Of a stretch of DNA of 33,676 nt, positions 189-18,729 are shown piece by piece (position 1 is the first letter of the stretch; each line of letters opens with the position of its first letter). Position numbers and translations under genes: made by a program. The notes beneath the pieces were generated by a model, which made no database searches, was not told the DNA's origin, and worked only from the letters and a program-made list of their open reading frames with translations. This DNA is from a virus. Lineage: Duplodnaviria > Caudoviricetes. The stretch lies in the IMG/VR virus record IMGVR_UViG_3300021446_000034, positions 1-33,676 of that record; one strand, written 5' to 3'.

Positions 189-1457
189 CTACCAATCCAG
201 AGCAGATCCGCCCATACTTTCCTCATTTTCTTCCCAATTACCACTCTTCCAGTCCTCATACTCGTCTTGAGAGAGATTCAATGCTTTCAGTGCCTTACCC
301 TCAGCTCTTGCACTCATTGCTACCTCCATCCGCTCGGATTGATCCAGAGCTTGAACCAGATCAAGGACTACCTTTTTAAAGTAGGTGAAATCGCCACCGA
401 TTCCCCAAGATCCTTCCTCAATGTTTGAAAGTGCCTTGTATAGTTCTGCCTCAGCACTTCCGTCTTCTACGTGTGTTTGTTTTCGTCGGAAATGAGATGG
501 ATACGATTTGTCAATGTAGTTGCCATAGGGTTCAGAAATACGACTCTCTCCCACCATTTCCAAAAGTGCAGTTGCATATTTCCAGTACCGATAATCGTTG
601 TCCGGACCAGCAAATCCCAAAAACTCATCAGCACTGGACATGATTTCGTATGCCACTGTTACCTCTACTCCCCGTAACTGTTTGTCCAGTTCGGAAAGGT
701 TGTTCCGCCAATTTTCATCCAACCAGTGAATGAACTCTTCCGGTTTGATTCCATTACCGATCTCCGCATTACCTTCTCCTTTCAGCTGTTGGTCAACAGC
801 GTCCCATTCACTCTGTTCCCACTCCCGTTGATCGAAGTCCACAGAGTCACTATCACGTTCCGAAAACCGTTGGAGATCGTTTATTGCTGATCGGAGGTCA
901 GGACGTTCCGACAATCGCTCCAAATCCCTTGGTGAGAGGTTTATGTCTTCCTTTTTCACTATCTCTTTTAGTTTTGCCTTTCGTGACCGTTTACCGAGTT
1001 TGAAGTCATGAGTGGTACAGGTTTGTTTGACCTTCCTCGGAACGCTGTACTTGTCATTCGCTGTTCCAATAACCGGACACTTGCCCATCTTTAGAGCCTT
1101 CACTAACGGTGTGAGGTTTGTCCGACCCGGTATGCTGTCGATTTCATCCAACAGAACCAACTGACGGTTTGCATATGGATTACTCGTGAGAGTTGATGCG
1201 AGTTCACGAATGTCTTCAGTTGTCCGTTTATCGCTTGCATTTACTTGGTTGAGTGTCCAACCCATCTTTTCTCGAACGACAAAGGCAGTTGTCGTTTTTC
1301 CCGTACCCGGAGAACCTATGAGTAATTGGGGTTTATCGCCCGGAGTCCAATGTTCAGCCCAATTTTCAATAGCACGAAGTGCAGTGTTATTACCTTGAAT
1401 TTCGTCAAACGATTTGGGACGGTACTTAGACACCCAGTGTTCGTCACCCATTGTCAT
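189..1457 (-). CDS. rfcL: Replication factor C large subunit (clamp loader)
   Basis: WVSKYRPKSFDEIQGN box, Walker A GSPGTGKTT, NASDKRT, Walker B LLDEID, DLRSAINDLQ and a large-subunit-type C-terminal region (YRYWKYA). Confidence 0.9.
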   Translation of the reverse strand: MTMGDEHWVSKYRPKSFDEIQGNNTALRAIENWAEHWTPGDKPQLLIGSPGTGKTTTAFVVREKMGWTLNQVNASDKRTTEDIRELASTLTSNPYANRQLVLLDEIDSIPGRTNLTPLVKALKMGKCPVIGTANDKYSVPRKVKQTCTTHDFKLGKRSRKAKLKEIVKKEDINLSPRDLERLSERPDLRSAINDLQRFSERDSDSVDFDQREWEQSEWDAVDQQLKGEGNAEIGNGIKPEEFIHWLDENWRNNLSELDKQLRGVEVTVAYEIMSSADEFLGFAGPDNDYRYWKYATALLEMVGESRISEPYGNYIDKSYPSHFRRKQTHVEDGSAEAELYKALSNIEEGSWGIGGDFTYFKKVVLDLVQALDQSERMEVAMSARAEGKALKALNLSQDEYEDWKSGNWEENEESMGGSALDW

Positions 1458-1851
1458 TCGCTTCCTCTAAATCTTTGATTATTTGTTCTACATCCACGTC
1501 AAATGCAGATTCATCAATTCTCTCCATCACAAACTGTGTATATTTGCCTCTTTTCTCTCCGCTATACTCCGCTTGGATATTTTGTTGTCCCTCAAGCACA
1601 CCCTCAATGGCGTCTAAACGGATTTCTATTTCCTCTAACTGCTCGTCAGTCTGGATGTTTATCAACCTTCTACGGATTTCGTCTGCATAAGTCTCTACTT
1701 CCTTTTTGGCTGCTTCGGGATGGACGTTCGTCTTTTTCATTTCTTTTATTACTTTTTCCTCAACCACTTGCTCCAAATGAGAACTTGAGATAGAATCTTC
1801 GGTAACATACTCCGCTAACTCCTCTACTACATCTGCATCAGAACATGACAT
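1444..1851 (-). CDS. Hypothetical acidic protein carrying the shared NVxTDEE module
   Basis: 135 aa acidic ORF overlapping the rfcL start; contains LINIQTDEQLEEIEIRLDAI. Confidence 0.75.
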   Translation of the reverse strand: MSCSDADVVEELAEYVTEDSISSSHLEQVVEEKVIKEMKKTNVHPEAAKKEVETYADEIRRRLINIQTDEQLEEIEIRLDAIEGVLEGQQNIQAEYSGEKRGKYTQFVMERIDESAFDVDVEQIIKDLEEANDNG

Positions 1852-1883
1852 AAGTAGATGTTGTTATTGGGTAAGCATTCGTA

Positions 1884-2345
1884 CTACCAAGTTATAGCGG
1901 AACTGCTTTCTGCCGCATACATATTGGTTATTGCGTCTTCCAAACGCAACATCTGATCTATATTTCCACCCGTCTTGGCGAACGGACGAGCTATTCTATA
2001 GTCCGACAAATGATTTTCCAGCGGATCTGTGTAATCTCTCCCCGCCAAGAACACAAGACTCTCCGTTTGTCTTCCCCTTATTGAAGAAACAACATCGTCA
2101 GTCCACCTCTTCATCTGTTGGTTGTGATAATTCGTAATTGCGACATCGTAATATTCTATCTTCTCATCGGGTTCTACAACACCATGTTTTGCACTAAGGA
2201 TGCACCACTCATCGGCTATTTTTCGCGCAAAATTTTTCTTTAAAGTGAAATAGTCCGAAGTATAACGGTCTTTGGCCTTTATCTTCTTGTACCGTTGTTC
2301 CCTCTTCTCGCTACCACACCCAACAAGTGCAAGAGTCATCACCAA
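1884..2345 (-). CDS. DUF6884-like protein (neighbour of the TGT/DpdA-like gene)
   Basis: Pattern ALVGCGSEK...AKDRYTSDYF...WCILSAKHGVVEPDEKIEYYD...FLAGRDY is typical of this family. The true start may be the ATG two codons downstream. Confidence 0.7.
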   Translation of the reverse strand: MVMTLALVGCGSEKREQRYKKIKAKDRYTSDYFTLKKNFARKIADEWCILSAKHGVVEPDEKIEYYDVAITNYHNQQMKRWTDDVVSSIRGRQTESLVFLAGRDYTDPLENHLSDYRIARPFAKTGGNIDQMLRLEDAITNMYAAESSSAITW

Positions 2346-3109
2346 CTCATACCCCCGTTTTCCGATATTGGTTCGTAATCGTAATTCGGAGACAACACGA
2401 AGTTCGCTACCATCAACATGAGTAACGCCCCATGACTCCTTACCGCAGACGATTTTTGTCCATTTGGTACGTCAAATTCAAATTGACTTAGACTCTCATC
2501 ATATATACTGTTATTCTTGATAGCCACTGATGGAGTAGAAGAGTCTATGCTATCAAGAAGATTGGGGGTTCTTTGAACAGCATCTACAAGGTCCTCAGTC
2601 ACACCAACACCGAATCCATGCAACATCTTAGATGGTCCTACTGTTTCTCTTGTTGCCTTTACTGCCTCTATCTTTTTTTTGTTATCCCAGTCTTTCACAC
2701 CACCAACAGCATAGTACGAATAGCCTTTGAGATCTTCGTAGTGTTCGTCATGAGGAGGCTGGAGGGGGATAATCGGCTTTGCATAACAATCTGATTCCTT
2801 ATATAAAGAAAAGAACTCCTCTACTGATTCAGTAGTCCGATCTCGGTCATGCATATAATCTTTAGGAACCACATAGGATGCCCGCATTTCTTCAGCCTTC
2901 TCTATGATTTCAGCATTGGTGATGTCTTTGCCAATTCCTGAATCAAGAATGTATTGAAAACACGTTTCACGAGAACGCCCCTCAGCCGCACCCGGACTCT
3001 GAAGTTTATAGGGATACCAAAATTGCTCTATTCCGCCCGACGCAGCACTATACACATCTACATACGACTCGCTGATGACACTCAACCGGTTTTCAAACTC
3101 TTTGAGCAT
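2339..3109 (-). CDS. TGT-fold transglycosylase, probable DpdA-like DNA 7-deazaguanine inserting enzyme
   Basis: TGT-like motifs in order: ILDSG, VPKDY, IPLQ, AVGG, LHGFG, DSIDSST. It is short (256 aa) with no recognisable Zn-binding C-terminus, and queE lies about 2 kb away. Confidence 0.7.
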   Translation of the reverse strand: MLKEFENRLSVISESYVDVYSAASGGIEQFWYPYKLQSPGAAEGRSRETCFQYILDSGIGKDITNAEIIEKAEEMRASYVVPKDYMHDRDRTTESVEEFFSLYKESDCYAKPIIPLQPPHDEHYEDLKGYSYYAVGGVKDWDNKKKIEAVKATRETVGPSKMLHGFGVGVTEDLVDAVQRTPNLLDSIDSSTPSVAIKNNSIYDESLSQFEFDVPNGQKSSAVRSHGALLMLMVANFVLSPNYDYEPISENGGMSW

Positions 3110-3114
3110 ACTAC

Positions 3115-3390
3115 TTACAAATCTTCAGGCCATTCAAGATAGTTAACCGAACACACGTTCTCAATTCGGATGTTTTTGATAACGGGAACGTTTTCTTTGG
3201 TGAGAGCGAGTCGCAAACACTCCATACCCCCAAGAAAATCGTCTTCCACCATCTCCATTACTCCTACAAGAGACATCGTTTTGTTTCTCTGTTCGTAAAA
3301 CACCTTTGCGTAACGGAGACTGCGATCATCAACCATTTCCTCGTACTTGTTCCATACACCAATCCATTCCTCATGGTCTCTTTCAGTCAT
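3115..3390 (-). CDS. Hypothetical protein
   Basis: 91 aa ORF tightly packed in the minus-strand gene run. Confidence 0.6.
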   Translation of the reverse strand: MTERDHEEWIGVWNKYEEMVDDRSLRYAKVFYEQRNKTMSLVGVMEMVEDDFLGGMECLRLALTKENVPVIKNIRIENVCSVNYLEWPEDL

Positions 3391-3616
3391 TTGGAGTCTC
3401 TTTCGGTTTGGTTTTTGCCTCTAACCACTCCTCATCTGCTCTCTTTTCCCATTCTTCATCCACAAACGTAGCAGAGCAGATATGACACGCTTCATAACGC
3501 GGATTTTTGTCCATTTCTATTCGCGTCTCACAACGCGGACACTGTACTGTCTTATCAAACTCAGACACCAACACTCTCTCAGTTGCGTCAAGAACGTGTT
3601 CTCTCTGTTCTTCCAT
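3383..3616 (-). CDS. Small zinc-ribbon protein
   Basis: CPRC...CHIC. Confidence 0.7.
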   Translation of the reverse strand: MEEQREHVLDATERVLVSEFDKTVQCPRCETRIEMDKNPRYEACHICSATFVDEEWEKRADEEWLEAKTKPKETPND

Positions 3617-3617
3617 C

Positions 3618-3959
3618 CTAGATCATATCATTAATATCGTCAATCTCTTCTTCCAACTCTTCTATATCTTCTTCTGTCATGACATTCTTCAATTCCTCTT
3701 TTAGAGACAGTATCCGATTGCAGACATCCTGCATGGTTGGTTCGGAGTCCGGTAGGCTCTCATTTCCATTCCAAAACGTCATTAGAACAACTCCACATTC
3801 GGGACACCTCATCTGACACCGTTCCTCTCCCGTTGTGAGGTACTGAGCCTGTTCCAATTCCACCGACTCAACGCTTTTTTCGTCTTCACAAGACCTACAT
3901 TTGATTGATGTCTGGGGATCAGCAGAGGGGTAGTCAACATTGAAACCCATTGTCACCAA
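3618..3959 (-). CDS. Zinc-ribbon protein with C-terminal NVxTDEE module
   Basis: CRSC...CPECG, then LKNVMTEEDIEELEEEIDDI. The likely start is the ATG of MGFNVD. Confidence 0.75.
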   Translation of the reverse strand: MVTMGFNVDYPSADPQTSIKCRSCEDEKSVESVELEQAQYLTTGEERCQMRCPECGVVLMTFWNGNESLPDSEPTMQDVCNRILSLKEELKNVMTEEDIEELEEEIDDINDMI

Positions 3960-4156
3960 CTATCCGCCTCACTCTCTTCTATCTCTACTGTTCTCACATC
4001 TACTTTTTTCATCTCCATTGTGAACGTGGTTGAGCAGTTGTCGCATACGACTGATGCGTGTCTGTCACCCACTTTACGCAGTCGTATGTTTTTGAGGGAA
4101 GGAGTAGAACGTTCTCTCAGCGCCTTGTTCCCACACTCCGGACATTCCTGTTCCAT
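3953..4156 (-). CDS. Small CPxCG zinc-ribbon protein
   Basis: CPECG...CDNC. Confidence 0.7.
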   Translation of the reverse strand: MEQECPECGNKALRERSTPSLKNIRLRKVGDRHASVVCDNCSTTFTMEMKKVDVRTVEIEESEADSW

Positions 4157-4161
4157 ACTGA

Positions 4162-5667
4162 TTAATCGCTGAATGGGTCCGATGGTCCACTACTTCCGTC
4201 CGATGAGAAGGGGTCACTTCCATCATCAGTTGACTCAAACGCAGAACTACTCCTCTTTCCCGTTCGCAGCTCACCAAAGGAGTAATTCACGAGGTCCAAA
4301 ATCGGTTCCATCGGATCTTTCATGTGTTTCTCTATGTGCTTCTGATAGTCAATTTCAAAACCATCAGGAACCCCATCCTCGCTCCACTCTACTGCTATTT
4401 CCTCCGTATTTGGGACATCCGGTGGACTGTCTTTGATGAAAACGACGAAAGGATTGTCTCCATCACCCCAGTCGTATCCAAGATACTCATTTGAATACAT
4501 ACAGGCCCTCGGAACAGGACGATTAGGGTAATCATGTGGGTCCTTGTTGAGAACTCCCGGTATTGCCATCTCCTGAATGGGTCTTTCATCCTCAACAACT
4601 CCATTAACGAACTGATCGGTGTACTCGCTGATTTCCTCAAACCCACTACCGGACAGTATGTGCTGAATAACTCCCTCCTGAAAATCACTCGTTATTTCCG
4701 GAGAAGAGGACCGGACAGCCTCATATCCGACAATATCTGTATCATCCACATAACTACCTTCTTTCCAGATGATGTTTCCTGCATATCGCTTCTTGCTTCC
4801 GCTCTGCAAAAACCTCCGATATAGCTTCTCACTTTCCCACAAGAAACATTGACGATCCGTACCGTGGAGCTTTCTGTCTTTCAAATACGGATGTTCGCCG
4901 GGAACACCAATCGCATCAGCAACTTTATCCATCTCTTGGTTGATGGACTCTTCCAGATCTTCTCCCATCGCAACAACCTCCTCCGCACTAAGATCCTCAC
5001 CACCTGAACCCAACTGAATGAAAGCTGAGTCCGTATCCGAATAAATCACCTCATGTCCTAACCGCCGAGCTACCTCCATTCCTTTCCAAGCGACATACCT
5101 TGAAAGAGCAGTAATAGCATCTCCAAATGCGTCCGTCGAGAGTCGAAAATACTGGTTATTAGCACACCCAAAGTGAGAGTTCATAAGAACCTTTACACTT
5201 CTTTGTTGGTTATCGTAGGTGTCGTATTCTGGTTGGTCCGGCGAAAACTGGTTTCGCTTGCGTTTGTAGTAACTCCGATCCTCAAACAAATCTCCAAGGT
5301 ACTTTGGGACAATTCCTTCAGTAGAAAGGTCTACACCGATTGCTTCAGGCAAACTCCAAGTGAGGTCTTCCTCAGTGATTTTGCTACCGGATGCGTGTTT
5401 ATCATTAAGAGGAATGTCAGGAATGATGATGTCCACCCTTTCTGGATCATCAGTAAGCGTTTCCTCGGAGATATTGCCCGTCAACATCGCGGATGGATAC
5501 AGAGATTTTAGGTCAAAAACACAAACCCAGTCTTTGATACCCGAAGACGGATAAAAGACCATTCCACCCGTTGCCGGTTCCATTTCTTCTTCTGTGGTGG
5601 TCGGAAGGATCTCCTCAAACGACCTCTTGTTCAACAAGTACCCCTCCACCATTTGCATCTCGGACAT
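4162..5667 (-). CDS. polB: Family B DNA polymerase, polymerase (C-terminal) half
   Basis: Motif A DLKSLYPSAM, motif B KVLMNSHFG, motif C YSDTDS, KKRYAG, GYEAVRS. Confidence 0.93.
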   Translation of the reverse strand: MSEMQMVEGYLLNKRSFEEILPTTTEEEMEPATGGMVFYPSSGIKDWVCVFDLKSLYPSAMLTGNISEETLTDDPERVDIIIPDIPLNDKHASGSKITEEDLTWSLPEAIGVDLSTEGIVPKYLGDLFEDRSYYKRKRNQFSPDQPEYDTYDNQQRSVKVLMNSHFGCANNQYFRLSTDAFGDAITALSRYVAWKGMEVARRLGHEVIYSDTDSAFIQLGSGGEDLSAEEVVAMGEDLEESINQEMDKVADAIGVPGEHPYLKDRKLHGTDRQCFLWESEKLYRRFLQSGSKKRYAGNIIWKEGSYVDDTDIVGYEAVRSSSPEITSDFQEGVIQHILSGSGFEEISEYTDQFVNGVVEDERPIQEMAIPGVLNKDPHDYPNRPVPRACMYSNEYLGYDWGDGDNPFVVFIKDSPPDVPNTEEIAVEWSEDGVPDGFEIDYQKHIEKHMKDPMEPILDLVNYSFGELRTGKRSSSAFESTDDGSDPFSSDGSSGPSDPFSD

Positions 5668-5668
5668 A

Positions 5669-6844
5669 CTACTGAGTATCCGTTATTTTCACACCGCACA
5701 AATCCGCAAGACTATAGAAAAACTCGTGAATGCCGTGTTTTTTGTCCAGTCCAGTAAGGAGCTGAACGTCTACTAGATTGTAGGCCATCAATTTTGACCG
5801 TTCTTCTTCGTACTGGTCCATGATAGATCCTCCCTCAACCTTTGACGAATCAAGTTCCTCACTGCTCACATAATCAAGAGACTTTGACCGCCATTCTCCA
5901 TACGACATTCGGTTAGTGAACGCATCCATCATGTCAAACGACGGAAGACCCGGTACTGCGTCTTCATCTCTCCAAGGCTTTACCATACCCAACTGCGACA
6001 AGTCACTAGAAGAAACCGTAAACACCGCCTTTTTTCTATTCATTCGATTTATGAGATACGGCCAGTCGAAGTCGGTAAAGTTCCAGCCAGATGCAATGTC
6101 CGGACGTTTGTTCTTTACTTCATTAATAAAAGCGCCAAAGAGTTCGGATTCGGACTCACACTGTCGCAAACGAATGTCACACTGAGTATAAAACTTCTCA
6201 TCGTCATGACCCCCCCAGTGGTTTTCTAAATGCTCACGGACCTCTTTTGGGTCAATCTGTTCCTCCTCGTCCAACGCAATACAGAGATACTGATTCTGGA
6301 ACGAGTCGTATGTGGTAATCATCAATACTTTACCCGGAGATTTTTCGACATAATCATCCCAGTTATCAGTGTTCTCTGGAGGCTCCGTTTCAATATCACA
6401 AAGCATGATCCTTGGTACGATCCCATCCCCATCCAGATCGTCCAAATCGGTTTCTACCTCCTCAATATCGCACCTACTCTTCAACTCGGGAATCTTCACA
6501 TACCCACTTAGTCCATAATCCACCGAAACGCGACGCTCATACGGAACATCTGCCTCATATGTGGCGTTGAAAGAATCCCGTATATCACCTACATCTCCCG
6601 GAACACGAGTCACTACTTTACGGAGTGGTTGTCCGTCGTATCCCTCATACTCCTCCTCAACGTACTCCACTTCGTTACAAGAGGGAACAGTTGCAGATTC
6701 AGGAACGAAGAAATACGGCTCCGTTCCCGTCACATGAACGTTGTACCTACCCCCATCCAATCCACGAGCGGTCAACTGGACAATGGGAGAAGTCTCTTTC
6801 GTCATGTAGTTTATATCCGTAACTCGCGCTGTTATTTTCTGCAT
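5669..6844 (-). CDS. polB: Family B DNA polymerase, N-terminal and 3'-5' exonuclease half
   Basis: YEADVPY, ExoI DIETE, ExoII GWNFTDFDWPYL, SLDYV, ExoIII YNLVDV. It stops 1 nt before the ATG of the polymerase half. Confidence 0.9.
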   Translation of the reverse strand: MQKITARVTDINYMTKETSPIVQLTARGLDGGRYNVHVTGTEPYFFVPESATVPSCNEVEYVEEEYEGYDGQPLRKVVTRVPGDVGDIRDSFNATYEADVPYERRVSVDYGLSGYVKIPELKSRCDIEEVETDLDDLDGDGIVPRIMLCDIETEPPENTDNWDDYVEKSPGKVLMITTYDSFQNQYLCIALDEEEQIDPKEVREHLENHWGGHDDEKFYTQCDIRLRQCESESELFGAFINEVKNKRPDIASGWNFTDFDWPYLINRMNRKKAVFTVSSSDLSQLGMVKPWRDEDAVPGLPSFDMMDAFTNRMSYGEWRSKSLDYVSSEELDSSKVEGGSIMDQYEEERSKLMAYNLVDVQLLTGLDKKHGIHEFFYSLADLCGVKITDTQ

Positions 6845-6975: not shown

Positions 6976-7455
6976 CTAAGAATTATCCTCGTCATCGCTT
7001 TCGTCTGATGCGCTCTGTTCTTTTATCTTATCCATAGTCCAAGTTCCTTCCGTCTTATTTATGCTCAAGCTTCTTGTCTTTCCGATGAAAGTCTCATCAT
7101 TGTCTCCCGTGTCTTTTTTATCGCCTCCAGTGCCCCACCTAGGCCCAGAAATATCAGAAGTATCAAATCTTATATCTTTATTTCCCCACTCAGAATCCTC
7201 CCAATCAATGTCCTCAATACTATCTATCTCCGGGGTCTTCAATTGCTCTTCAAGAGCGTCAAGAAGATCTTCAATCTCATCCAACTCCTCATCGGACATC
7301 ACGTTCTTCAGTTTGGTACGGAGTTGGTTTATTTTCTCTACCTCGGAATTGCCCGAGTCCATCATCATATGCGTCTCAGCTAGCTCGCTCGGAGAAGACG
7401 AGTAATGTTCTGTTTTCTTACCGTCATGAGGATCGCTCGTGATATTAAGACTCAT
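6976..7455 (-). CDS. Hypothetical acidic protein with NVxTDEE module
   Basis: LKNVMSDEELDEIEDLLDAL. Confidence 0.75.
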   Translation of the reverse strand: MSLNITSDPHDGKKTEHYSSSPSELAETHMMMDSGNSEVEKINQLRTKLKNVMSDEELDEIEDLLDALEEQLKTPEIDSIEDIDWEDSEWGNKDIRFDTSDISGPRWGTGGDKKDTGDNDETFIGKTRSLSINKTEGTWTMDKIKEQSASDESDDEDNS

Positions 7456-8023
7456 CTTTTATCTCTTTGCGGATCTTTTCAACCGATTTAACTCTACTTT
7501 TGTCTGGCCTTGCCCACTGTGTAGAAAGATTCGTGGTTTTAACACGCTGAGACGGAATGTGATGGTTTACGGAACTTGTAGTAGCTGCATTGTCGTCCAA
7601 ACCACGATGAAATTGAGTGTCGTCCAACTTTTTGGTCTTCATTGACTCCAATGCATCATTCACTTGCTTGACCTCTTCATCGGTCATCACGTTCTTAATG
7701 ATTGACTGAATATACTCAATCAATCTGTTTGTGTGAGGTTTACTTAGATACTTCTCCAATTCATCATAATCCATTTCGTCTTCGTCAACAGGATGGTGCG
7801 TATGTTGGTCTACCCTCTCACTCCGTATTTTATATCGCATCTCCTCTGCTTCTCTTTCTTTGAAAGCACCTTTGTCAAAATGTTGCTTTTGAAAAGCAGC
7901 GGTAGGAGGTAAATTCATCGCATTTCTACCACCATCGTCAGATTCGGTATCCTTTGTACTGTTCCGTTCATCGTTTCCTTCGGGAGGAAACATAGTATTC
8001 TTGACTGAGTTTATGAGATTCAT
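7445..8023 (-). CDS. Hypothetical protein with NVxTDEE module
   Basis: IKNVMTDEEVKQVNDALESM. Confidence 0.75.
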   Translation of the reverse strand: MNLINSVKNTMFPPEGNDERNSTKDTESDDGGRNAMNLPPTAAFQKQHFDKGAFKEREAEEMRYKIRSERVDQHTHHPVDEDEMDYDELEKYLSKPHTNRLIEYIQSIIKNVMTDEEVKQVNDALESMKTKKLDDTQFHRGLDDNAATTSSVNHHIPSQRVKTTNLSTQWARPDKSRVKSVEKIRKEIKDES

Positions 8024-8812: not shown

Positions 8813-9246
8813 CGTTCGTCCTCCGGCAATACTTCTATTGTGACCGTTTCACCCTCTTCATCAGTATCTTTTGGGATCGGAAAACCGGTTACTACGCCCC
8901 CCTGAAGAACGTTTTTCGATATTGACTTTTTGCCGCCCGGCCATTCGGATTCTATATCCAACCCAACATCACCCTCTACAAAATCCGTATCTTCATACAT
9001 TTCGTGGGTCAAACGAATGGAGTCTAGATGGTTCTGTATCTCTTTGACTTCCTTATCAGTCATGACATTAGCCAAATTGCCCTCTATGCTGTCTACTCTA
9101 TCAGTAACGGGCGGTTCTTGGGCCGACTCAACCAATTTAGAGATTTCTGCAAGGGAACTTTCTATTTTTGGAGGATCAGGAACAGAAATGTTTTTGAGTG
9201 AGTCCAAAGCCTTGGAAACGTCTTTGAATGACTCTTTAGTGCCCAT
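8809..9246 (-). CDS. Hypothetical protein with NVxTDEE module
   Basis: LANVMTDKEVKEIQNHLDSI. Confidence 0.75.
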   Translation of the reverse strand: MGTKESFKDVSKALDSLKNISVPDPPKIESSLAEISKLVESAQEPPVTDRVDSIEGNLANVMTDKEVKEIQNHLDSIRLTHEMYEDTDFVEGDVGLDIESEWPGGKKSISKNVLQGGVVTGFPIPKDTDEEGETVTIEVLPEDER

Positions 9247-10249
9247 CGTCTTCCCACTGTTCCTGTTCGTAATTGTCCACGTTCAGATGTCTGGCAACGT
9301 GGATACTCGAAAGGAGAGAATGAAACTGTACGTTCGGATTTGCCCCATTCAGAATCCTCCAGTCCGCCTTTCCGATTTTTGAAATTGCCTTAGCACGAAT
9401 CGGAGCCGGCCAATTTTTGTCTTTTACAACTCTCAGCATGGAGTCACACAACGTTTGAGAGTCCACACCGGATTTCAATACCTTGTCAGTCTTGTCCATT
9501 GCTTCCCCATAGTCACCTGCAATAGCCATATCAACCAATTCCTCAATGAGATCGTCGTCAACGACACTTACGAGAGCATCAATGGACTGTGCTGATACCG
9601 TTCCATCCGCTTCGGCTGCCTGTAGTGTATTAACAGCCTTCCGTGCATCCCCACGAGAATGTTCCACCAAATCCCAAAGGTGGTTCTCGTCTACGTCCAG
9701 ACTTTCTCCTTCTACCACCCGATCAAGGAATTGTTTTACTTCACTATCATCCAGTTTACCGAAATTAAAAACCGCGCAACGGGAGAGGAGGGGGTCAATA
9801 ATTTGGTTTTGATAATTACACGTCATTACGAATTTTGTCTGGTCTGAGAACTTTTCCATCACCCGGCGTAGAGCAGGTTGCGCAGAATCCGTGAGTGAGT
9901 CCATCTCGTCAAGGTGTATATACTGGTGGTTTGCATTAGACCCTACTGCCGTACTTTGTCGAGCGAACGACTTGACTTTATTACGAATGACATCAATACC
10001 TCTCTCATCACTCGCGTTGAGACTCATGATGTTGTTTTTCCATCCCTCTCCATATTTGTCTTTAGCAAAGGCCAAAATAACACTCGTCTTCCCAGTCCCC
10101 GCTGGACCGGAGAACAACATATGAGGTGTAGACGGATCATCAGTCCACTCTTTGAGTTGCTTCACTGCTTCCTCTTGACCGATAACATCATCAAGCGACT
10201 GAGGACGGTACTTCTCAACGTACATCTGGTCGTTTACGCTATCCATCAA
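9236..10249 (-). CDS. rfcS: Replication factor C small subunit
   Basis: EKYRPQSLDDVIGQ, GPAGTGKT, LNASDERGIDVIR, LDEMD, AQPALRRVME, SRC motif, GDARKAVNTLQ. Confidence 0.95.
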   Translation of the reverse strand: MMDSVNDQMYVEKYRPQSLDDVIGQEEAVKQLKEWTDDPSTPHMLFSGPAGTGKTSVILAFAKDKYGEGWKNNIMSLNASDERGIDVIRNKVKSFARQSTAVGSNANHQYIHLDEMDSLTDSAQPALRRVMEKFSDQTKFVMTCNYQNQIIDPLLSRCAVFNFGKLDDSEVKQFLDRVVEGESLDVDENHLWDLVEHSRGDARKAVNTLQAAEADGTVSAQSIDALVSVVDDDLIEELVDMAIAGDYGEAMDKTDKVLKSGVDSQTLCDSMLRVVKDKNWPAPIRAKAISKIGKADWRILNGANPNVQFHSLLSSIHVARHLNVDNYEQEQWEDDGH

Positions 10250-10866: not shown

Positions 10867-11028
10867 TCACTCTCCATCGTCTATGTTATCCGCCAACCAT
10901 TGAATTTGGTGTAGAAGACTTTCGATTTCTTCCGCTTTCTTATCCGTGTTGATGTTGTCGAAAATATCTTTAATATTGTGTGCTTTATCGCTTATCTCAT
11001 CACTGTTTGTTCGTGTTGTCAGTATCAT
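10867..11028 (-). CDS. 53-aa protein consisting almost solely of the NVxTDEE module
   Basis: Below the ORF-track cutoff. MILTTRTNSDEISDKAHNIKDIFDNINTDKKAEEIESLLHQIQWLADNIDDGE; it overlaps the end of the upstream ORF. Confidence 0.6.
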   Translation of the reverse strand: MILTTRTNSDEISDKAHNIKDIFDNINTDKKAEEIESLLHQIQWLADNIDDGE

Positions 11029-11293
11029 TGGGTAATTGATTCGTATAGCTGAAGTTCTCTCCTGACTGCTTAACGTCTCCTAAGTACCGTGTAGTCCCTG
11101 TCAACTCGTCTTTCTCTTCCTCATCAGTTGAAGGCTCCAGTTCTTCGTCCACAATTTCTATGATTTCATCAACCACCAGACTCAACTCCTCTAATTCTTC
11201 ATCTGTATGGACGTTATTAAGAGAATTTTGCAACTCTATCAGTTTCTGCTTTGCCCGCTCGTCCGGATAATAAGAGATTAATTCAGAAGCCAT
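11000..11293 (-). CDS. Hypothetical acidic protein with NVxTDEE module
   Basis: LNNVHTDEELEELSLVVDEI. The start was moved to ATG 11293 to avoid overlap with the primase. Confidence 0.7.
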   Translation of the reverse strand: MASELISYYPDERAKQKLIELQNSLNNVHTDEELEELSLVVDEIIEIVDEELEPSTDEEEKDELTGTTRYLGDVKQSGENFSYTNQLPNDTDNTNKQ

Positions 11294-11318
11294 ATTGACA
11301 ACAGCCTGTCCCCAAAGG

Positions 11319-12416
11319 TCAATACTCACACTGCCCTCCGCTCCATCCATACGTCTCACACTGATCTTTTCTCTCGTCGGAATCGTATATACACAATCCT
11401 TCCTTTTGTAGCGTCTCACACGACATATCTGCATACCGTTTGCGATATATCTGCTCTAACTGCCGTTGTGTCACATCAGGATCGTAGTTCCTCCAGTTGA
11501 TTTTCGCATATATCTCTTGTACCTCCTCCGGAGACATCCCACAGTTGAACAGAAGAACCGCTACATTACGACGAACCGTATGGGAAGGATTCGGTTGAAA
11601 TATCCGTTCTTTCATACACGGTAGTTGCACTACTGACCTCACGAACTGCTCCAAGGAGTCGCTAACTGGTTTTGTATAGCCCTCAATTGGTTTGTGAGCC
11701 GTTTGAGTGTTGGTGGTATGGGTGTACCCTTCGTACACTTTCATCTCCGGTCTGTCGTACCGTATAGACACATCTCGCGGATTTCGTGACAACTCCAACA
11801 TTTCACTCACACTCATATCGCACACCTCCTCCGGTGTGAGAGGAATCGTGTAGTGTCCGGTATGCCTTCCGTCATACACACGAGGACAATTGGGGATTCG
11901 CATCAGCCGATGAACGTCTCCAATAGGCATACGATCAAGCGTTTCCAACCCTAACTCTTCTTCCAACATCATAGCAGTTGACCGCAATTCCCGTTTCGGT
12001 CTAACTTCTGTCGCAAACAGCAAATGCGTGTGGAAACCAAAACCAGTTAGGATGAGAGCCGCCGGGATTTCGTTTTCTATAGTCCACTCACATACTTTTC
12101 TGGTGTCCTCCAAAGTGTTCCCCAACACCTTTTCTGCCAACTCTGTATCTTCTCTCATACGCTTGATTTTTGCTCTCTCATCGTCCGTGTCACCAAAGGC
12201 TGCCTCTTTCCAACCGGAGTCAAAATCCAAAGAAACCATACTGGTGAGGGGAGTTCCGTCCATCCCGTAGTGAGATATTGTCGAATAGAGGTTTTTGTCC
12301 CCACTACAGAAATCCACAAAATCATCGAACTCCGCTTCGGTATGGACTACGTGTTGTGAGGGATTACCGACTGCTCTTGGAAAACGACCGAATAATGCTT
12401 TAGTTACATCATCCAC
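11319..12416 (-). CDS. Archaeo-eukaryotic primase: PriS-like catalytic domain fused to a PriL-like C-terminal cysteine domain
   Basis: Motif I SLDFDS, motif II TGFGFH, motif III GDVHRLMRIPN. The C-terminus LPCMK...SHTVR...YADMSCETLQKEGLC..C is PriL-CTD-like. Confidence 0.8.
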   Translation of the reverse strand: MDDVTKALFGRFPRAVGNPSQHVVHTEAEFDDFVDFCSGDKNLYSTISHYGMDGTPLTSMVSLDFDSGWKEAAFGDTDDERAKIKRMREDTELAEKVLGNTLEDTRKVCEWTIENEIPAALILTGFGFHTHLLFATEVRPKRELRSTAMMLEEELGLETLDRMPIGDVHRLMRIPNCPRVYDGRHTGHYTIPLTPEEVCDMSVSEMLELSRNPRDVSIRYDRPEMKVYEGYTHTTNTQTAHKPIEGYTKPVSDSLEQFVRSVVQLPCMKERIFQPNPSHTVRRNVAVLLFNCGMSPEEVQEIYAKINWRNYDPDVTQRQLEQIYRKRYADMSCETLQKEGLCIYDSDERKDQCETYGWSGGQCEY

Positions 12417-12419
12417 ATT

Positions 12420-13595
12420 TCACCAGCTCATTGCGCCATTGTGTTGTCTCGGTCCCGGATTCTTAGTAGCCCTCTCTTCAGACATCTCAACATAGTCCTT
12501 ATTCAAATCTATTCCAATCCACCTCCGCTCAAGATCTTGTGCTACTACTGCCGTTGTTCCGGCCCCAATAAACGGATCAAGGACAATACCCGGTTCAGTT
12601 TCGCTTATAGAACAGTCACATTGCTGCTCCCAACCAACTAACTCTCGGGAGGATCGTTGCCACCCCTTTTGGGGTGGAGCTGATCTGCCCTTGATATTGG
12701 GACTATATTCTCTCTCTTCTCCCCTGACAACATCACCCTTCTCCTCTTTTACCAGAGCATACGGTCTGCCACACTCAACACAAACCTCCGAAGGACAAGA
12801 CGCCTTGATTGGTTTCTCTATCAACTCCGTAGGGAAGACAGCAAAGTGTGCATCGGGAAATTGGGCTGTAGTGACTTCAAAGATGTCTCCGGGGTTCTTG
12901 CCGTTTGAGTGAGTGAATTGGTTTGGATTGAGAGTTTCTTCTCCGTCGGGATGCCCTCTTTCTGCGTTCCCTTCCCAATTCGGATTTCCGTTGTTCTGGT
13001 TTACTCGCTGAATAGAAGATTCTGCGTATGGTTTCCGAATGGAGTCAAGATCGTAGTAGTAGTTCCCTTGCTGAACAAAGTGGAAGAAAAACTCAAACGT
13101 TGTAGAGAGCCTATCTGTAACACTTTCTGGCATAGGAGATGTTTTGCTCCAGACTACATCGTTCCGAACAATCCATCCTTCGTCTTGCAAAGCAATCGCA
13201 GTCCGGTGAGGGACCAACATCTTGTCTTTGTTGGGGAACGATGTGTTCTTCGCTGGAGGCTCATCAGGATAATTCTCATCTTGGTGCATATCATCCCAAT
13301 CATCCGGCTTACCTGCTACCCCTCCACCTCCTGAATAGGTGTCCCCAAGATTCAACCACCAGCTGCCGTCATCTCTCAATACGCGCTGTAGCTCATCGCC
13401 AACGTCAACCAGTTGCTGTATATACTGTGACAGTGAATCTTCCAGTCCTATCTGTCCGTCGCAGTTGTAGTTTCTCAAACCATAATAAGGGGAACTTGTA
13501 ACGACACAATGGACAGAATCCGCTGGCATCTCTTCTAACGTCTCTTTTGCATCTCCTTGATGAACTTCATTCACCCAATCGTCTATATCGGACAT
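12420..13595 (-). CDS. Beta-class amino (likely N4-C) DNA methyltransferase with a Zn-binding insertion
   Basis: VTSSPYYG (motif IV), WLNLGD, WSKTSPMPES, HFAVFPTELIE, CPSEVCVECG...CDC insert, VLDPFIGAGTT (motif I). Confidence 0.88.
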   Translation of the reverse strand: MSDIDDWVNEVHQGDAKETLEEMPADSVHCVVTSSPYYGLRNYNCDGQIGLEDSLSQYIQQLVDVGDELQRVLRDDGSWWLNLGDTYSGGGGVAGKPDDWDDMHQDENYPDEPPAKNTSFPNKDKMLVPHRTAIALQDEGWIVRNDVVWSKTSPMPESVTDRLSTTFEFFFHFVQQGNYYYDLDSIRKPYAESSIQRVNQNNGNPNWEGNAERGHPDGEETLNPNQFTHSNGKNPGDIFEVTTAQFPDAHFAVFPTELIEKPIKASCPSEVCVECGRPYALVKEEKGDVVRGEEREYSPNIKGRSAPPQKGWQRSSRELVGWEQQCDCSISETEPGIVLDPFIGAGTTAVVAQDLERRWIGIDLNKDYVEMSEERATKNPGPRQHNGAMSW

Positions 13596-13600
13596 ACACA

Positions 13601-14497
13601 CTACGAAACGTTACCGATAGAATGACGAACAGTGGAGCCGTTACCGTCCTGAAGAACGTATAGAGGACCGTCGTCAACGGAGTAAATCTCCACTTGACCG
13701 GAAAGAGAGTTGACCAACTCTTTGAACCCAGTATGGTATTCGTTGTCGAAATCCGGTCCTTCTACTCCGGTTGAGAAGGAACCGAAAATCTGTTGAGACT
13801 GTGCATCTCCCACATTGAGACTGAATGTACCGTCCTCAACTACAACTGGGAAGAAATCTTCCTCTGCATCCTCGTGAACGTCTACCGCGTCCACGATCTT
13901 CTCCATTTCCTGCATTCCAGCACTGACATGAGTGGGTAGTTCCTCCCCACTATTCGGATTGATGAGAACGTTATCATCGTTCACCTGCGTCGGTAGGTCT
14001 AGTGGTACTTCCTCAAGGACTGCATCACTACCCGGAAGCGGCACACGAGAAGTCAACTTTCCAGTAATCCTGAGAGCTTGTGCAAGTCGCACTTGTGGTT
14101 CTTTGATGAAGTCGAGTTCTACCACTCCCCCATCACTAGCGATATTGAGGTAGTTAAGGAACTCCTGTGTGTCAACCACTGCCTCCAGCGTCGGTTTCTC
14201 TCCGTCCGGAGTGTTGTTTTCAGTCTGTTCGGTAACACCGATCTGCTTCATTGACTCCTCGTTCCATGTGGTATACGACACAACGACGTTGCCATGACTC
14301 CCCGCAAGACACTGAATCTGACCATCACTCACGTTCATGTAAACAATGTCGTGAATTGGTCCACCTCCCTTTGTAAGAGCGGTTTCTTGCACCAAGGTCT
14401 GTAGTCCCTTCGTACTCGCACGAACCGTAGCAGCAGTATAGTCAGTATCCTCAACAACAGTATCGGACGCACTTTGTGCTTCACTCATTGTAGTCAA
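13601..14497 (-). CDS. Probable divergent PCNA-like sliding clamp
   Basis: 298 aa acidic protein with a two-domain alpha/beta periodicity resembling PCNA (IVYMNVSDGQIQCLAGSHGNVVVSY; AVVDTQEFLNYLNIA..GGVVELDF; FKELVNSLSGQVEIYSVDDGPLYV). Both RFC subunits are nearby. Confidence 0.5.
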   Translation of the reverse strand: MTTMSEAQSASDTVVEDTDYTAATVRASTKGLQTLVQETALTKGGGPIHDIVYMNVSDGQIQCLAGSHGNVVVSYTTWNEESMKQIGVTEQTENNTPDGEKPTLEAVVDTQEFLNYLNIASDGGVVELDFIKEPQVRLAQALRITGKLTSRVPLPGSDAVLEEVPLDLPTQVNDDNVLINPNSGEELPTHVSAGMQEMEKIVDAVDVHEDAEEDFFPVVVEDGTFSLNVGDAQSQQIFGSFSTGVEGPDFDNEYHTGFKELVNSLSGQVEIYSVDDGPLYVLQDGNGSTVRHSIGNVS

Positions 14498-15235: not shown

Positions 15236-15437
15236 TGCCTAACATTTCCACGTCCCTATTTTTGCGGAGATTGCCGCACATACGACACCGCTCAATAGTG
15301 TGCCATTCTAGTCCGGTTCTTCCCATTTCAACATCTGCATCAACAACATTTTGATGGTCCCACATATGCGAATCTCCAGACCCAGAAGGACAGTAATCCA
15401 AAGTTGCAGGATCTGATTCGTCTTCTTCGTCACTCAT
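15228..15437 (-). CDS. Small putative zinc-binding protein
   Basis: YCP....HMW...CRMCG. Confidence 0.6.
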   Translation of the reverse strand: MSDEEDESDPATLDYCPSGSGDSHMWDHQNVVDADVEMGRTGLEWHTIERCRMCGNLRKNRDVEMLGND

Positions 15438-16596
15438 CGTCTACAAACCTCGGATTGCCTTGCATAACCGAAATATCATGATCGGTTAGTTCACTCACTT
15501 CAACCTCTTCATCGGATAGTTCCGCTTCTTCAATAGCGTTCACCACCTCCGTCGTCTTCTCAAAGGTCGGATATTCCAGTCCGGTAAATCGGTACTTGGT
15601 TAGTCCGGATTTCTCCAGAGATCCTGTTGGAACACCTTTGTGGTCTTGGTCAATGTGGAGGATATGGTCCACCTTGTAGACATTGTTTTTCTCTCCAACA
15701 GGCTTCTTCCGATCAACTCCGTCTTCCATTTTCGCACTATAATCTTGCTCCTCCATAGCAGTCCAGACCATATTATATTCGCTTTCGGTCATGACTTGAC
15801 GGAAGTCTGAGTGGTAAGATTTGATCTGCTTCCAATCCGATTGGCCCCCTCCGAAACCCGAGGAAAATTGTTCTTTAGCGTCTTCAAATGGAGTACTTGG
15901 ATAGAACTTATCAACGTACTTTTGTTGTGACCATTCCCAAAGAATGCTCATACTATCTACACAAATAGTACCTATACGACCATTTTCTGATTTATAGTGA
16001 TCTAGAACATCAAGGGCCTCATGAACCGCTTCAAGTGCTTCATCATAACCAGAGGGTTGCCAAATATAGAAATCTTTATCTGGAAACTTGTGAGCAATAT
16101 CATCACTCTTCCCTTCTGTGTCAATAATACACAGAGGGTCCTCAGCGGTATATACGAAATGGGTTTTTCCCGATCCCGGCTGTCCCCAAACCAAAATTTT
16201 CCATCGGTGGTCCTTTTCACGCGCTTCATTTGCTCCCATCGCATTGGGAGCAAGATTATCTATGTCAATACTACTTTCTTCTACACTAGATTCACTTTCT
16301 TGACTCATATTCACTTGACTCTCGTTTAGACGTGACTGCTTTGTCTCTCCATTTGGCGGAACAGAATCCAGCTCATGCAAACGCTTTCTGAATACTTCTT
16401 CTACTTCCTCCTTACTTGACTTCTCAAACCCCCTCTTCAATAACTCCTTATCTTCTACACCATCTACACCCTCCTCAACGGAACGTAAGGGGAGTTGGTC
16501 AATTGCTTCAGTATGAATAGCCGTTCTCATGTGTTCCGCATCCGTATCACTGCTACCGTCACTACTGCCTTCATTTGAACTCCAAGGACCACTCAT
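15430..16596 (-). CDS. AAA_24/Sak4-like RecA-fold ATPase (single-strand annealing recombinase)
   Basis: KILVWGQPGSGKTHF, IIDTEGK, TICVDSMS, DWKQIK; long acidic N-terminal extension. Confidence 0.75.
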   Translation of the reverse strand: MSGPWSSNEGSSDGSSDTDAEHMRTAIHTEAIDQLPLRSVEEGVDGVEDKELLKRGFEKSSKEEVEEVFRKRLHELDSVPPNGETKQSRLNESQVNMSQESESSVEESSIDIDNLAPNAMGANEAREKDHRWKILVWGQPGSGKTHFVYTAEDPLCIIDTEGKSDDIAHKFPDKDFYIWQPSGYDEALEAVHEALDVLDHYKSENGRIGTICVDSMSILWEWSQQKYVDKFYPSTPFEDAKEQFSSGFGGGQSDWKQIKSYHSDFRQVMTESEYNMVWTAMEEQDYSAKMEDGVDRKKPVGEKNNVYKVDHILHIDQDHKGVPTGSLEKSGLTKYRFTGLEYPTFEKTTEVVNAIEEAELSDEEVEVSELTDHDISVMQGNPRFVDDE

Positions 16597-16613
16597 TATT
16601 ACGTTATTGATTA

Positions 16614-17405
16614 CTAATTGACCTCGTTGTTTCCATTGTCAGGTATTTCAATATTGCCTACTTCTACAGTAGGATGGCAAACCTGACACACCGTAAACAA
16701 ATTACTCAACTCTGCTGCTTCATCCGGTGGTCGGTTCATATCGTCTTCCATAAACTCGGACCGAGGCTTGATGTGGTGGACATGAAGATCTCTTTCTCCC
16801 TCTAAAGACTCATCACCACATACCCTACATTCGTATCCATCTCTTTCTAAGGCCTTGGAACGGTTTTCGTAGAACAATCTTGAATACCCTACCCTAGTAC
16901 CACCCTTCCACCGATAACACTTCTCACCGATCTGAGATTCTGAAATCTTCTTCTTAGCTTCCTCGGTATGAGTTTCGCCATACATTCCATGATTTTCTCC
17001 GGATATTCCTTTAGAAATGTTCTTTCTATGCTCTTCTGTTTTTGGAACTCCAGCATTTGACTCAGAGATTTGCTGTTTAGTTTCTTCAGAAAGAACATTG
17101 CCGTGAGCTGGATGGTCTTCGCCGGTAAGACCATATGCCCAATGGTTTTCTCCTTTTTTAGCCTCAGACATCTTCTGTTTGACCTCTTCATCTATCCAAA
17201 CGACATTATCAACACACTCCTGACAATACTTTCTCTCTCTTTCTTTGTAGTCAGTAACCTCCGTTTCACACCCCCTACACTCTATTGTCTCTTTAGATAT
17301 AATTCCTTCGTGAATCTCATCTTTAGATATACCATAATGTTTCCTCATCCCAGCAATAGTATCAAACTCATCACCGCAAGCAGGACATTCAGTGATTTCC
17401 GCCAT
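16614..17405 (-). CDS. Free-standing HNH endonuclease with C2H2 finger and NUMOD3 repeats
   Basis: CPACG..F....GMRKH; repeats EEVKQKMSEAKKG, EETKQQISES, EEHRKNISKG, EEAKKKISES; ERDGYECRVCG...VHHIKP...NLFTVCQVCH. Confidence 0.88.
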   Translation of the reverse strand: MAEITECPACGDEFDTIAGMRKHYGISKDEIHEGIISKETIECRGCETEVTDYKERERKYCQECVDNVVWIDEEVKQKMSEAKKGENHWAYGLTGEDHPAHGNVLSEETKQQISESNAGVPKTEEHRKNISKGISGENHGMYGETHTEEAKKKISESQIGEKCYRWKGGTRVGYSRLFYENRSKALERDGYECRVCGDESLEGERDLHVHHIKPRSEFMEDDMNRPPDEAAELSNLFTVCQVCHPTVEVGNIEIPDNGNNEVN

Positions 17406-17436
17406 TGATTAGTATAAAACCTCCTTAGAAACTCAT

Positions 17437-18729
17437 CTACCAATCCGTTGCTTCATTACAGGTAAGCCGTCCTCTTGAGGCTGCCAATCTATCCCTCGCA
17501 AGTTCAGCATACTCTTCGTCTCTTTCTATACCAACACACCCCCTCCGTGTATTCTCACAAGCAATAGGGGTAGTGCCGCTTCCGAGGAACGGATCAAGAA
17601 CCCTTTGTCCTTCTGCCGTTACCAACTTGACCAACCACTCCATCAGATCAATTGGTTTGACCGTAGGGTGTGAGTGGTCAACCTTTCCACCAACGGTCTT
17701 TTCTGATCTTGATGCCTTGGACGTATAGAAAAAGCGTGACGCTCCGCCGGAATCACCATAGTTGACAGATACATCGCCTTGTCCCTCCAAATCACCAATT
17801 CCTTCCCCATATATCTCGTTAGTATCGTTCCCACTACGGATGTAGGTATCTGGAGAACGAGTAACGCCACTTTGCTCGTCCAATAACTCTGCTGCTTTTT
17901 CGTCCAATGCAAGGTTGGCAGGATAACGACTGTTTGGATTCTTGTCTCCAGTTCTTACGCCATCTCCATGCATCCCTTCCCCATTGCCGTACACTTCCTC
18001 CGTTTCGCTGACTACCCCCTCTGGAAACTCTTCTTTATTCTCGGTTGGTATCCGACACTCTCTAATGTTCAAAGCACCCGTTTCTGTAGACAATATCTGT
18101 TCTACAATCGTATCTTCCTCCAACGGTTTACGTGCTACACAGACAAATTCCGTGGAGGGTTTCAATCCGGTTTTGGCCCCTTTGAATCTCTGAGCGACTT
18201 CAGTAGCAGGAATATACTCCCGAGACGCTTTCTCTTTCGCATCGGGATCATCCATCCAAGGACGGTGGTATCCATCATGATGGGACACGTCCCTATCTAA
18301 ATTCTCTATTTCATTAGCATCTCTGTCCGTCTTCGGATCACCATACTCTCCCTCTTTTCCGAGTTTCTCATCTAACGCCTTATCAACTGCAAGTCCCTTG
18401 GGCATACCAGTACCGTAGAGATATGTGATAGTATCTCTGACAGTAAAACCGGCGTCTTCAATCCCCACCATAGCACGGTGATGAGTCCGATTGCCAGAAA
18501 ACGACAACATATGACCTCCCGGTTTGAGGACTCTCAGAACCTCTTTACTCCATTCCTCACAGAACTGCTGATACTCCTTCGGTTCAAAATCGTCCCAGTC
18601 GTTTCCCATGAACGCCAATCCGTATGGTGCGTCTGTAACACACGCATGAAAATGGTTGTCCGGAAACGATTGGAGCGTGAATGGAACTTCTCCTTTAATC
18701 ACCTCGTGTTTACCAATGTCGGAACTCAC
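17437..18729 (-). CDS. Beta-class amino DNA methyltransferase (likely N6-A)
   Basis: VTDAPYGL (motif IV), RVLKPGG, GGASRFFY, HPTVKPIDLMEWLV, VLDPFLGSGTT. Confidence 0.9.
   Translation of the reverse strand: MSSDIGKHEVIKGEVPFTLQSFPDNHFHACVTDAPYGLAFMGNDWDDFEPKEYQQFCEEWSKEVLRVLKPGGHMLSFSGNRTHHRAMVGIEDAGFTVRDTITYLYGTGMPKGLAVDKALDEKLGKEGEYGDPKTDRDANEIENLDRDVSHHDGYHRPWMDDPDAKEKASREYIPATEVAQRFKGAKTGLKPSTEFVCVARKPLEEDTIVEQILSTETGALNIRECRIPTENKEEFPEGVVSETEEVYGNGEGMHGDGVRTGDKNPNSRYPANLALDEKAAELLDEQSGVTRSPDTYIRSGNDTNEIYGEGIGDLEGQGDVSVNYGDSGGASRFFYTSKASRSEKTVGGKVDHSHPTVKPIDLMEWLVKLVTAEGQRVLDPFLGSGTTPIACENTRRGCVGIERDEEYAELARDRLAASRGRLTCNEATDW

Follow-up and report, generated by a model that had tools for sequence, protein, structure and literature searches.

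A shortened PIP-like C-terminal tail that probably docks the clamp loader and DNA-modification enzymes on a divergent viral clamp in a halovirus replication region

The IMG/VR record IMGVR_UViG_3300021446_000034 (33,676 bases, its own whole assembly; analysed at full length and hereafter called the window) is, by protein similarity, a halovirus replication region nearest to Druskaviridae, and several of its proteins end in a short tail closing on tryptophan that is probably a clamp-docking peptide. The tail is likely to be a shortened PCNA-interacting peptide (PIP) box, predicted to dock the large subunit of the clamp loader, replication factor C (RFC-L), both DNA methyltransferases and a DpdA/DUF6884 pair on a virus-encoded clamp, so that new viral DNA would probably be chemically disguised during copying. 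All six tails pointed out in the initial annotation were found in place, each on a protein encoded on the minus strand: RFC-L (189..1457; phrog_11838, E 3e-101; GGSALDW at 192-212, then TAG), a DUF6884/YaaA-like and possibly DpdC-like protein (1884..2345; PF21818; SSSAITW at 1887-1907, TAG), a DpdA-like homologue of tRNA-guanine transglycosylase (TGT) (2339..3109; ENGGMSW at 2342-2362, TGA), the N4/N6-family DNA methyltransferases 1 (12420..13601; PF01555, SPYY motif; HNGAMSW at 12423-12443, TGA) and 2 (17437..18729; PF01555, DAPY motif; CNEATDW at 17440-17460, TAG), and, as an uncertain member, a small Zn-ribbon protein encoded directly after the family-B DNA polymerase (PolB) (3953..4156; weak Zn-finger matches; possible tail ESEADSW, TGA). 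The predicted receptor is a divergent viral sliding clamp of PCNA fold, 295 residues long from the ATG at 14488 (13601..14488, minus strand).

Terminal tryptophan, whose count the initial annotation had proposed as a check, is enriched in the window. Among 50 open reading frames (ORFs), hand-picked and every one on the minus strand, seven have W as their last residue; with W at a frequency of 1.5%, the binomial p is 1e-5. The seventh, previously overlooked, belongs to a small membrane protein (ORF 33431-33625) whose end, KVRDVW, falls outside the motif. The pattern [AG]-x-[SDT]-W is matched by the other six (0.026 each by composition, p = 2e-9), a figure that is post hoc, the pattern having been drawn after the sequences were seen. 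As a non-circular test, a profile was trained exclusively on viral RFC-L homologues (P0007-P0116; 94 distinct tails), leaving out two homologues that stop short of the tail and the window's own RFC-L. With this profile, the six flagged proteins occupied ranks 1-6 of 50 (scores 12.0, 11.8, 9.6, 4.8, 4.0 and 3.6; the next, -0.5), the Zn-ribbon tail being fifth. When W was set aside and each tail was compared with 3,453 internal aromatic contexts, RFC-L, methyltransferase 1 and the DpdA-like protein fell within the top 0.2%, 0.3% and 0.9%, respectively, and the membrane ORF at 87%.

The tail is also well conserved in RFC-L homologues, where its absence from orthologues would have told against the initial annotation. 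A search found 138 RFC-L homologues, of which the best 120 were listed; the counts given here are for the best 110 after the query. Altogether 108 of these 110 end in W (95), F (12) or Y (1), and ATDW, as in methyltransferase 2, also terminates one of them (P0105). The other nine listed comprise three partial proteins, likewise ending in W, and six of cellular type, five of which close on a longer PIP-like stretch led by Q (for example, QSGLTDFMG); a Natrinema RFC-L ends in QSGLSDFM. One viral-family RFC-L with the W tail (P0055) is filed on a 173-kb contig of Halorubrum sp. C191, perhaps a resident virus or plasmid; a scan of the sequence collections did not recover the DNA itself. The aromatic end, preserved at the protein level and mostly encoded in the relatives by F or Y codons (TTC, TTT, TAC), bears on a caveat raised earlier, namely that TGG-TGA can double as a Shine-Dalgarno sequence, and on the wider reading of the tail as a by-product of nucleotide sequence, through such a signal or gene overlap, or of chance. 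Three of the six tails do read TGG-TGA and are followed by a start codon only a few bases away, but the other three read TGG-TAG, and the Shine-Dalgarno explanation is refuted by the F/Y forms and the conservation of the end; by-product or chance is thus exceedingly improbable.

Because Q stands six residues before the end in 28 of the 110 homologues, the register could be fixed as PIP positions 1-7, with the chain ending at the first aromatic: [Q/S/T/G]-x-[S/D]-[A/V/I/P/G]-[L/M/A]-[D/E/S]-[W/F/Y]-COOH, position 8 being absent. Read against the canonical QxxhxxAA, the glutamine of position 1 is found in none of the six window tails and in those 28 homologues; position 4, canonically L/I/M, is A (five) or G (one) in the window and A 37, V 21, E 13, I 10, L 4 or M 1 among the 110; the aromatic of position 7 is present in all six tails and in 108 homologues; and the aromatic or hydrophobic residue of position 8 is lost, the chain stopping one residue earlier. 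Failing at positions 1, 4 and 8, the tail is not a canonical PIP box by letter but is likely to work like one on the divergent viral PCNA. The original proposal of a non-canonical clamp-binding motif therefore stands as regards conservation and modelled placement in the PIP pocket, and has to be amended in that the tail is a truncated PIP box and not an unrelated motif.

The same register would be expected of a degenerate PIP box whose partner is host PCNA, either alone or alongside the viral clamp, with no private code involved: it is the register of host-type boxes, 27 of the 110 RFC-L tails still read Q-x-x-h-x-x-aromatic, and W occupies position 7 also in canonical boxes of homologues of the DpdA-like protein. 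However, compared with QxxhxxAA (PMC4929162), position 4 is E, S, D or G in 33 homologues beyond the 37 with A, and position 8 is missing; the viral RFC-L, the expected loader of the viral clamp, has the same form of tail; and viruses with a conventional PCNA, or with none, retain the longer box. We consider host PCNA rather unlikely to be the partner in this sense, and a preference for the viral clamp is suggested by the divergence of the motif together with its co-occurrence with that clamp.

The identification of the 13601 region as a clamp is borne out by its fold and by its orthologues. The protein is 33% identical to one annotated as PCNA in HCTV-16 and HVTV-2, and the HVTV-1 protein has already been recognised as a distant clamp (PMC4889955). 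A profile search gave 130 relatives, 96 of them aligned at full length; the AlphaFold2 model from this alignment (predicted local distance difference test (pLDDT) 93.2, predicted template modelling (TM) score 0.89), which replaced a fold made from 5 sequences (pLDDT 33), has the two-domain fold of PCNA, retrieves PCNAs in Foldseek from E 5.6e-14 at 6-13% identity, and the Atlas model has a TM score of 0.68-0.72 to PCNA clusters. The Pfam PCNA_N and PCNA_C profiles do not match the protein, and its family profile reaches archaeal PCNA at only E 0.007. Both RFC-L and the RFC small subunit (9236..10249, minus strand; Pfam Rep_fac_C, phrog_168; without the tail) are encoded in the window, and the clamp was modelled as a monomer. 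Its complex with the methyltransferase 1 tail (clamp residues 14-295 and methyltransferase residues 362-393) was modelled along the lines of the AlphaFold check suggested in the initial annotation: the tail is placed in the PIP pocket with an interface score (ipSAE) of 0.81, against 0.21 for the best of three controls. In the calibration, which is only rough for the alignment used, 116 of 157 solved pairs attained this mark, as did 2 of 215 mismatched ones. The runs agree in 100% of contacts, and the partner pLDDT is at least 57. Only methyltransferase residues 385-393 make contacts, best resolved at tail positions 4 and 5, and they touch clamp residues 66-70, 162-184, 271-275 and 290-295, plus 212 and 252-253. 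These four segments parallel those of the human PCNA pocket (40-44, 117-135, 230-235 and 251-253; PMC6881253); residues 66-70 align with the DPSRVVL loop of archaeal PCNA 3lx2, and 162-184 fall between the two domains. The pocket of centre loop, interdomain loop and C-terminal strand is thus predicted to be occupied by the tail.

The distribution of the tail in cultured relatives extends the set of predicted clients. In HVTV-2, with all 175 genes translated, terminal W alone is not enriched (4/175), which redefines the motif as ending in W, F or Y; F or Y is the usual last residue in the cultured relatives, and the tryptophan first regarded as fixed is not invariant. Seven HVTV-2 proteins end in this motif against 0.49 expected (the pattern again having been drawn after inspection): RFC-L (SQSVLDF), PolB (QGGVLSW), Dam (TDVLDF), gp68 (DNVLEF), a GNAT protein (EDPLDF), a small HNH protein (DDVLDY) and gp99 (DDVLGF). 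All seven genes lie within the 73 genes gp35-107, and none of the 29 genes of the virion block carries the tail, as the hypothesis demanded of structural proteins. The RFC-L profile places RFC-L, PolB and Dam at ranks 1-3 of 175 and gp68 fifth, rank 4 being an HNH protein without an aromatic end; gp68 is identical to HVTV-1 gp69, which is DpdA4 (PMC10516641). The same set recurs in HCTV-16 and HCTV-5, each covered by a 50-kb part (7 of 73 and 8 of 75 genes, respectively), where a C5 methyltransferase (QDVLSY) and another D12 enzyme (TNVLDF) are tailed in addition. In all three viruses, the tail is found on RFC-L and PolB, the two textbook clamp partners, and on every annotated DNA methyltransferase seen; DNA-acting modification enzymes are tailed in 7 of 7 cases and the precursor enzymes FolE, QueC, QueD, QueE and QueF in 0 of 15, numbers that consist of orthologous sets and correspond to about four families versus five. 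The absence of detectable mutual BLAST similarity among the tailed modifiers (D12, C5 and N4/N6 methyltransferases and two DpdA types) points to repeated acquisition of the tail by modification-enzyme families. Several searches for uncultured close relatives with DNA context found none; others gave 80 distant RFC loci, matches to two stretches, or a single cellular-looking RFC locus without tail or clamp together with five bacterial loci, limiting the within-genome co-variation to four named genomes and a few contigs.

Three further tailed or W-ended proteins deserve mention in their own right. The tailed GNAT protein (gp90 of HVTV-2, L001:45026-45523, with orthologues in L004 and L005; EDPLDF) is encoded adjoining or near PolB and is a candidate DNA-acting acetyltransferase. 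The gene of gp99 (L002:3706-4158) adjoins that of the primase, and most relatives keep its tail (VLGF, VLEF, VLRF; VLEV in L086); its look-alikes in the Atlas are winged-helix repressors at 0.88, which serves only as a lead. In three genomes of Druskaviridae type (L002:12303-13748, L089 and L091), W is also the last residue of the large terminase subunit (VNDAW, VNTAW and VNDTW), although the fit to the profile is poor.

Orthologous enzymes carry longer PIP-like boxes at the very place of the tail. For methyltransferase 1, five orthologues were picked from the top matches (phiH1, phiCh1, HRTV-29 and two haloarchaeal plasmids); the alignment runs through the last helix and puts tail and boxes in the same columns, HNGAMSW being aligned to ETNLTEF(V), ETSLREF(I), QAGFEAY(T), ETSLLAF(T) and ETSLLAY(A). 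All five are PIP-like, of the form E/Q-x-x-L/F-x-x-F/Y followed by extra residues, with Q at position 1 in one. The viruses phiH1 and phiCh1 encode a conventional PCNA, by which they were ruled out as clamp-less controls; neither clamp type was matched in HRTV-29 or HSTV-4. In HSTV-4, PolB has the canonical end QTGLAAFC, and one of the 84 genes read, a small one, matches the viral tail pattern. Among 59 homologues of the DpdA-like protein, 21 have Q-x-x-h-x-x-aromatic within the last 14 residues. The pattern occurs in only 2 of 956 internal windows, and 2,000 shuffles gave 1.3 on average and never more than 6. In 20 of these 21 homologues the chain continues beyond position 7; the closest full-length homologues, P0127 and P0129, end in SAMEW and SPLSW. 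The tree of the 60 DpdA-like proteins is a quick version with its base not resolved, and we do not claim independent origins within this family. For methyltransferase 2, the closest full-length matches are bacterial-phage enzymes, none of the four read carrying the W tail, and they are therefore uninformative on tail exchange among archaeal elements; two of the four (L106:286-1488 and L107:241-1497) end in PSLFS and EVGFDFGDAAS, which we take to resemble bacterial beta-clamp motifs. C-terminal aromatic tails elsewhere serve in binding to hubs, in degradation or in localisation, and the present tail might by analogy bind another viral hub, such as the single-stranded DNA-binding protein SSB (19255-20238), the AAA protein (15430-16596) or the primase, or act as a degradation or localisation signal. 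The column-for-column correspondence with PIP-like boxes, the presence of the tail on RFC-L and PolB and its modelled position in the PIP pocket of the clamp make such roles improbable.

Several observations weigh against the proposed docking of these enzymes on the viral clamp at the fork. The window PolB ends in DPFSD without an aromatic residue, a point not mentioned in the initial annotation, and the PolB of a more distant relative (L093) ends in TESFDFS; the primase, Cas4-like nuclease, Hjc, ERCC4 and RadA of the window also lack the tail. With W set aside, the tail contexts of DUF6884, the Zn-ribbon protein and methyltransferase 2 are marginal (top 7%, 9% and 10% of the 3,453, respectively). 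The strict PIP pattern is unmatched in 38 of the 59 DpdA-like homologues; HSTV-4 DpdA4 has no PIP box, HRTV-29 DpdA ends in QTSLGG without an aromatic, and HRTV-29 YaaA has no tail, so that tethering is not obligatory for these enzymes. Conservation in the columns of the predicted interface does not exceed that of the clamp as a whole (0.38 versus 0.39), and the score of the modelled complex may reflect likeness to solved PIP-PCNA structures, that is, likeness and not binding. Finally, the sole phage precedent for clamp coupling of a modification enzyme is disputed: the interaction of T4 alpha-glucosyltransferase with gp45 was not reproduced in a 2025 preprint, which used C-terminal His tags (bioRxiv 10.64898/2025.12.06.692756). 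Such tags could mask a terminal motif.

The untailed PolB is also in line with the enzymes binding the clamp away from moving forks, on clamps left or reloaded on finished DNA, or simply being concentrated in the viral replication zone. The HNH protein and the winged helix-turn-helix-like gp99 of HVTV-2 are tailed as well, and DpdA chemistry has been termed post-replicative (PMC10516641), a description compatible with either timing. Against this stands the tail on PolB in the three cultured relatives examined, and we judge action away from the fork somewhat unlikely. The window PolB is unusual in other respects. It is split without an intein into an exonuclease part (5669-6844) and a polymerase part (4162-5667; together 4162..6844, minus strand) by a TAG stop, one base and an ATG, and one contig of sequencing run X1 crosses the split unchanged; HVTV-2 PolB is a single ORF. 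Its C-terminus has a doubled SDPFS where HVTV-2 has a single SNPF followed by the tail GGVLSW, the doubling being possibly a second short motif, and neither other reading frames nor readthrough at the PolB end supply a tail. The Zn-ribbon ORF starts five bases past the PolB stop in a different frame, and it may be speculated that its product lends a tail to PolB in trans. The Cas4-like nucleases have aromatic-rich ends unlike the clamp tail (GGIDYIKF in the window, 8027-8812; SYWKY in HCTV; ALEWRHI in L093:4579-5376).

The assignment of the modification enzymes themselves rests on homology and context. The DpdA-like protein shares 29% identity (E 3e-31) with the HRTV-29 protein annotated as DpdA, has TGT matches that are weak and under curated cut-offs, and lies near the start of a gene for QueE of 7-deazaguanine precursor synthesis, cut at the window edge (2..154, minus strand; 71% identity over 31 residues to HVTV-2 QueE, E 2e-14). 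PF20314 (DUF6610), the domain of DpdA4, is present in HVTV-2 gp68 and absent from the window protein, and the two have no BLAST match. DUF6884 matches the DpdC model of PADLOC weakly (E 6e-4); its orthologue adjoins DpdA in HRTV-29, and in 4 of the 59 homologues (P0138, P0140, P0154 and P0171) it forms a single protein with the DpdA-like domain, these fusions ending in canonical PIP boxes.

In the predicted course of events, the viral RFC would load the viral clamp at primer junctions, and the tail-bearing enzymes would swap places on its pockets behind the fork. The docked methyltransferases would methylate their sites, the DpdA-like protein would exchange G for a 7-deazaguanine, and DUF6884, if DpdC-like, would perhaps convert the inserted base further. 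With less confidence, we suppose that when enzymes were taken up into this lineage, their host-type PIP box was re-tuned into a viral version favouring the viral clamp. We tentatively entertain the further idea of a private clamp code, somewhat against the odds, in which the viral clamp and the re-tuned tail are orthogonal to host PCNA, modification is aimed at DNA bearing the viral clamp, and self is marked at the fork with host DNA left unmarked. If this were true, the tail would be a tag exposing DNA-acting proteins: DUF6884 would be a DpdC-like enzyme acting on DNA-bound preQ0, the HVTV/HCTV GNAT protein a DNA acetyltransferase, e.g., of the dPreQ1 amine, and gp99 a clamp-riding transcription factor like T4 gp33 and gp55. 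In HVTV-1, about 30% of G is modified and further modification has been raised (PMC6884629), for which the GNAT protein would be a candidate. The tail bears on the question of how viral DNA is located and so extensively modified by viral DpdA and orphan methyltransferases before host restriction acts. It also allows DNA-acting proteins to be predicted among those left unannotated, and provides a short linear motif that differs between elements with different clamps. In the open-access literature (titles and abstract starts), no description of clamp-docking tails on haloviral modification enzymes was found; the supplements of PMC8651126 and PMC10516641 may bear on the point.

As to placement, the replication proteins match Druskaviridae only or best, but no virion genes are identifiable on the contig; the clamp (33% identity) and RFC-L (43-46%) matched only eight phage records, each of them from Druskaviridae. 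Sequencing runs X1-X3 showed no variant letters, indels or joints against the window, X1 (labelled a halite metagenome and containing 0.91 of sampled window words) being possibly its source and so not independent; no RNA run was among those listed as containing window words. Further genes encode a fused primase, Cas4-like nuclease, RadA, Hjc, ERCC4 and ribonucleotide reductase, the last of class II type with an intein containing a LAGLIDADG domain (20383-23937). A pair of MoxR-type AAA and vWA proteins (30118-33034) is orthologous to Druskaviridae genes annotated CobS/CobT, both vWA proteins ending in EVMF. By eye, a stretch like NV(M/H/N)TDEE(L/V/I)xE(I/L) recurs in several unrelated-looking small proteins (1444-1851, 3618-3959, 6976-7455, 7445-8023, 8809-9246, 11000-11434 and 29710-30078) as a repeated module to which no role is assigned.

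The tail system is worth comparing with known ones. Druskaviridae (HVTV-1/2, HCTV-1/5/16) share with the window the clamp, RFC-L/S, fused primase, PolB, QueE and a DpdA-type enzyme, with 33-46% identity for clamp, RFC-L and PolB. In the window, by comparison, PolB is split and untailed, a DpdA of HRTV-29 type together with DUF6884 takes the place of DpdA4 (DUF6610), the methyltransferases are N4/N6 and not D12/C5, and the G+C content is about 46%. The accessible parts of the papers on the Druskaviridae modules (PMC4889955, PMC8651126, PMC6884629 and PMC10516641) describe no docking motif, and the terms PCNA, PIP and clamp are all absent from the main text of PMC8651126. The archaeal PCNA clients with C-terminal PIP boxes of consensus QxxhxxAA (PolB, RFC-L, Fen1, RNase H2, NucS and NreA; PMC4929162) are alike in the C-terminal site, the register, the predicted pocket and the common occurrence on RFC-L and PolB. 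In contrast, the viral tail mostly lacks Q at position 1 (present in 28 of 110), is often small at 4 and hydrophobic at 5 and ends at the aromatic of position 7; its predicted receptor is a viral clamp only 6-13% identical to solved PCNAs, and its proposed clients include DNA methyltransferases and DpdA.

In phage T4, gp43, gp33 and gp55 dock on the clamp gp45 by their C-terminal tails. That system resembles the present one in combining a virus-encoded clamp with a common short C-terminal docking peptide, but here the main predicted clients outside the replisome are modification enzymes. Among cellular enzymes, DNMT1 works at the replication fork. It is listed with a PIP motif (PMC6881253) and is, as proposed for the viral enzymes, a DNA methyltransferase tethered to a sliding clamp. 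However, DNMT1 is a host enzyme with an internal canonical motif that serves maintenance methylation, whereas in the halovirus several unrelated viral enzymes would be tethered by a terminal variant of the box.

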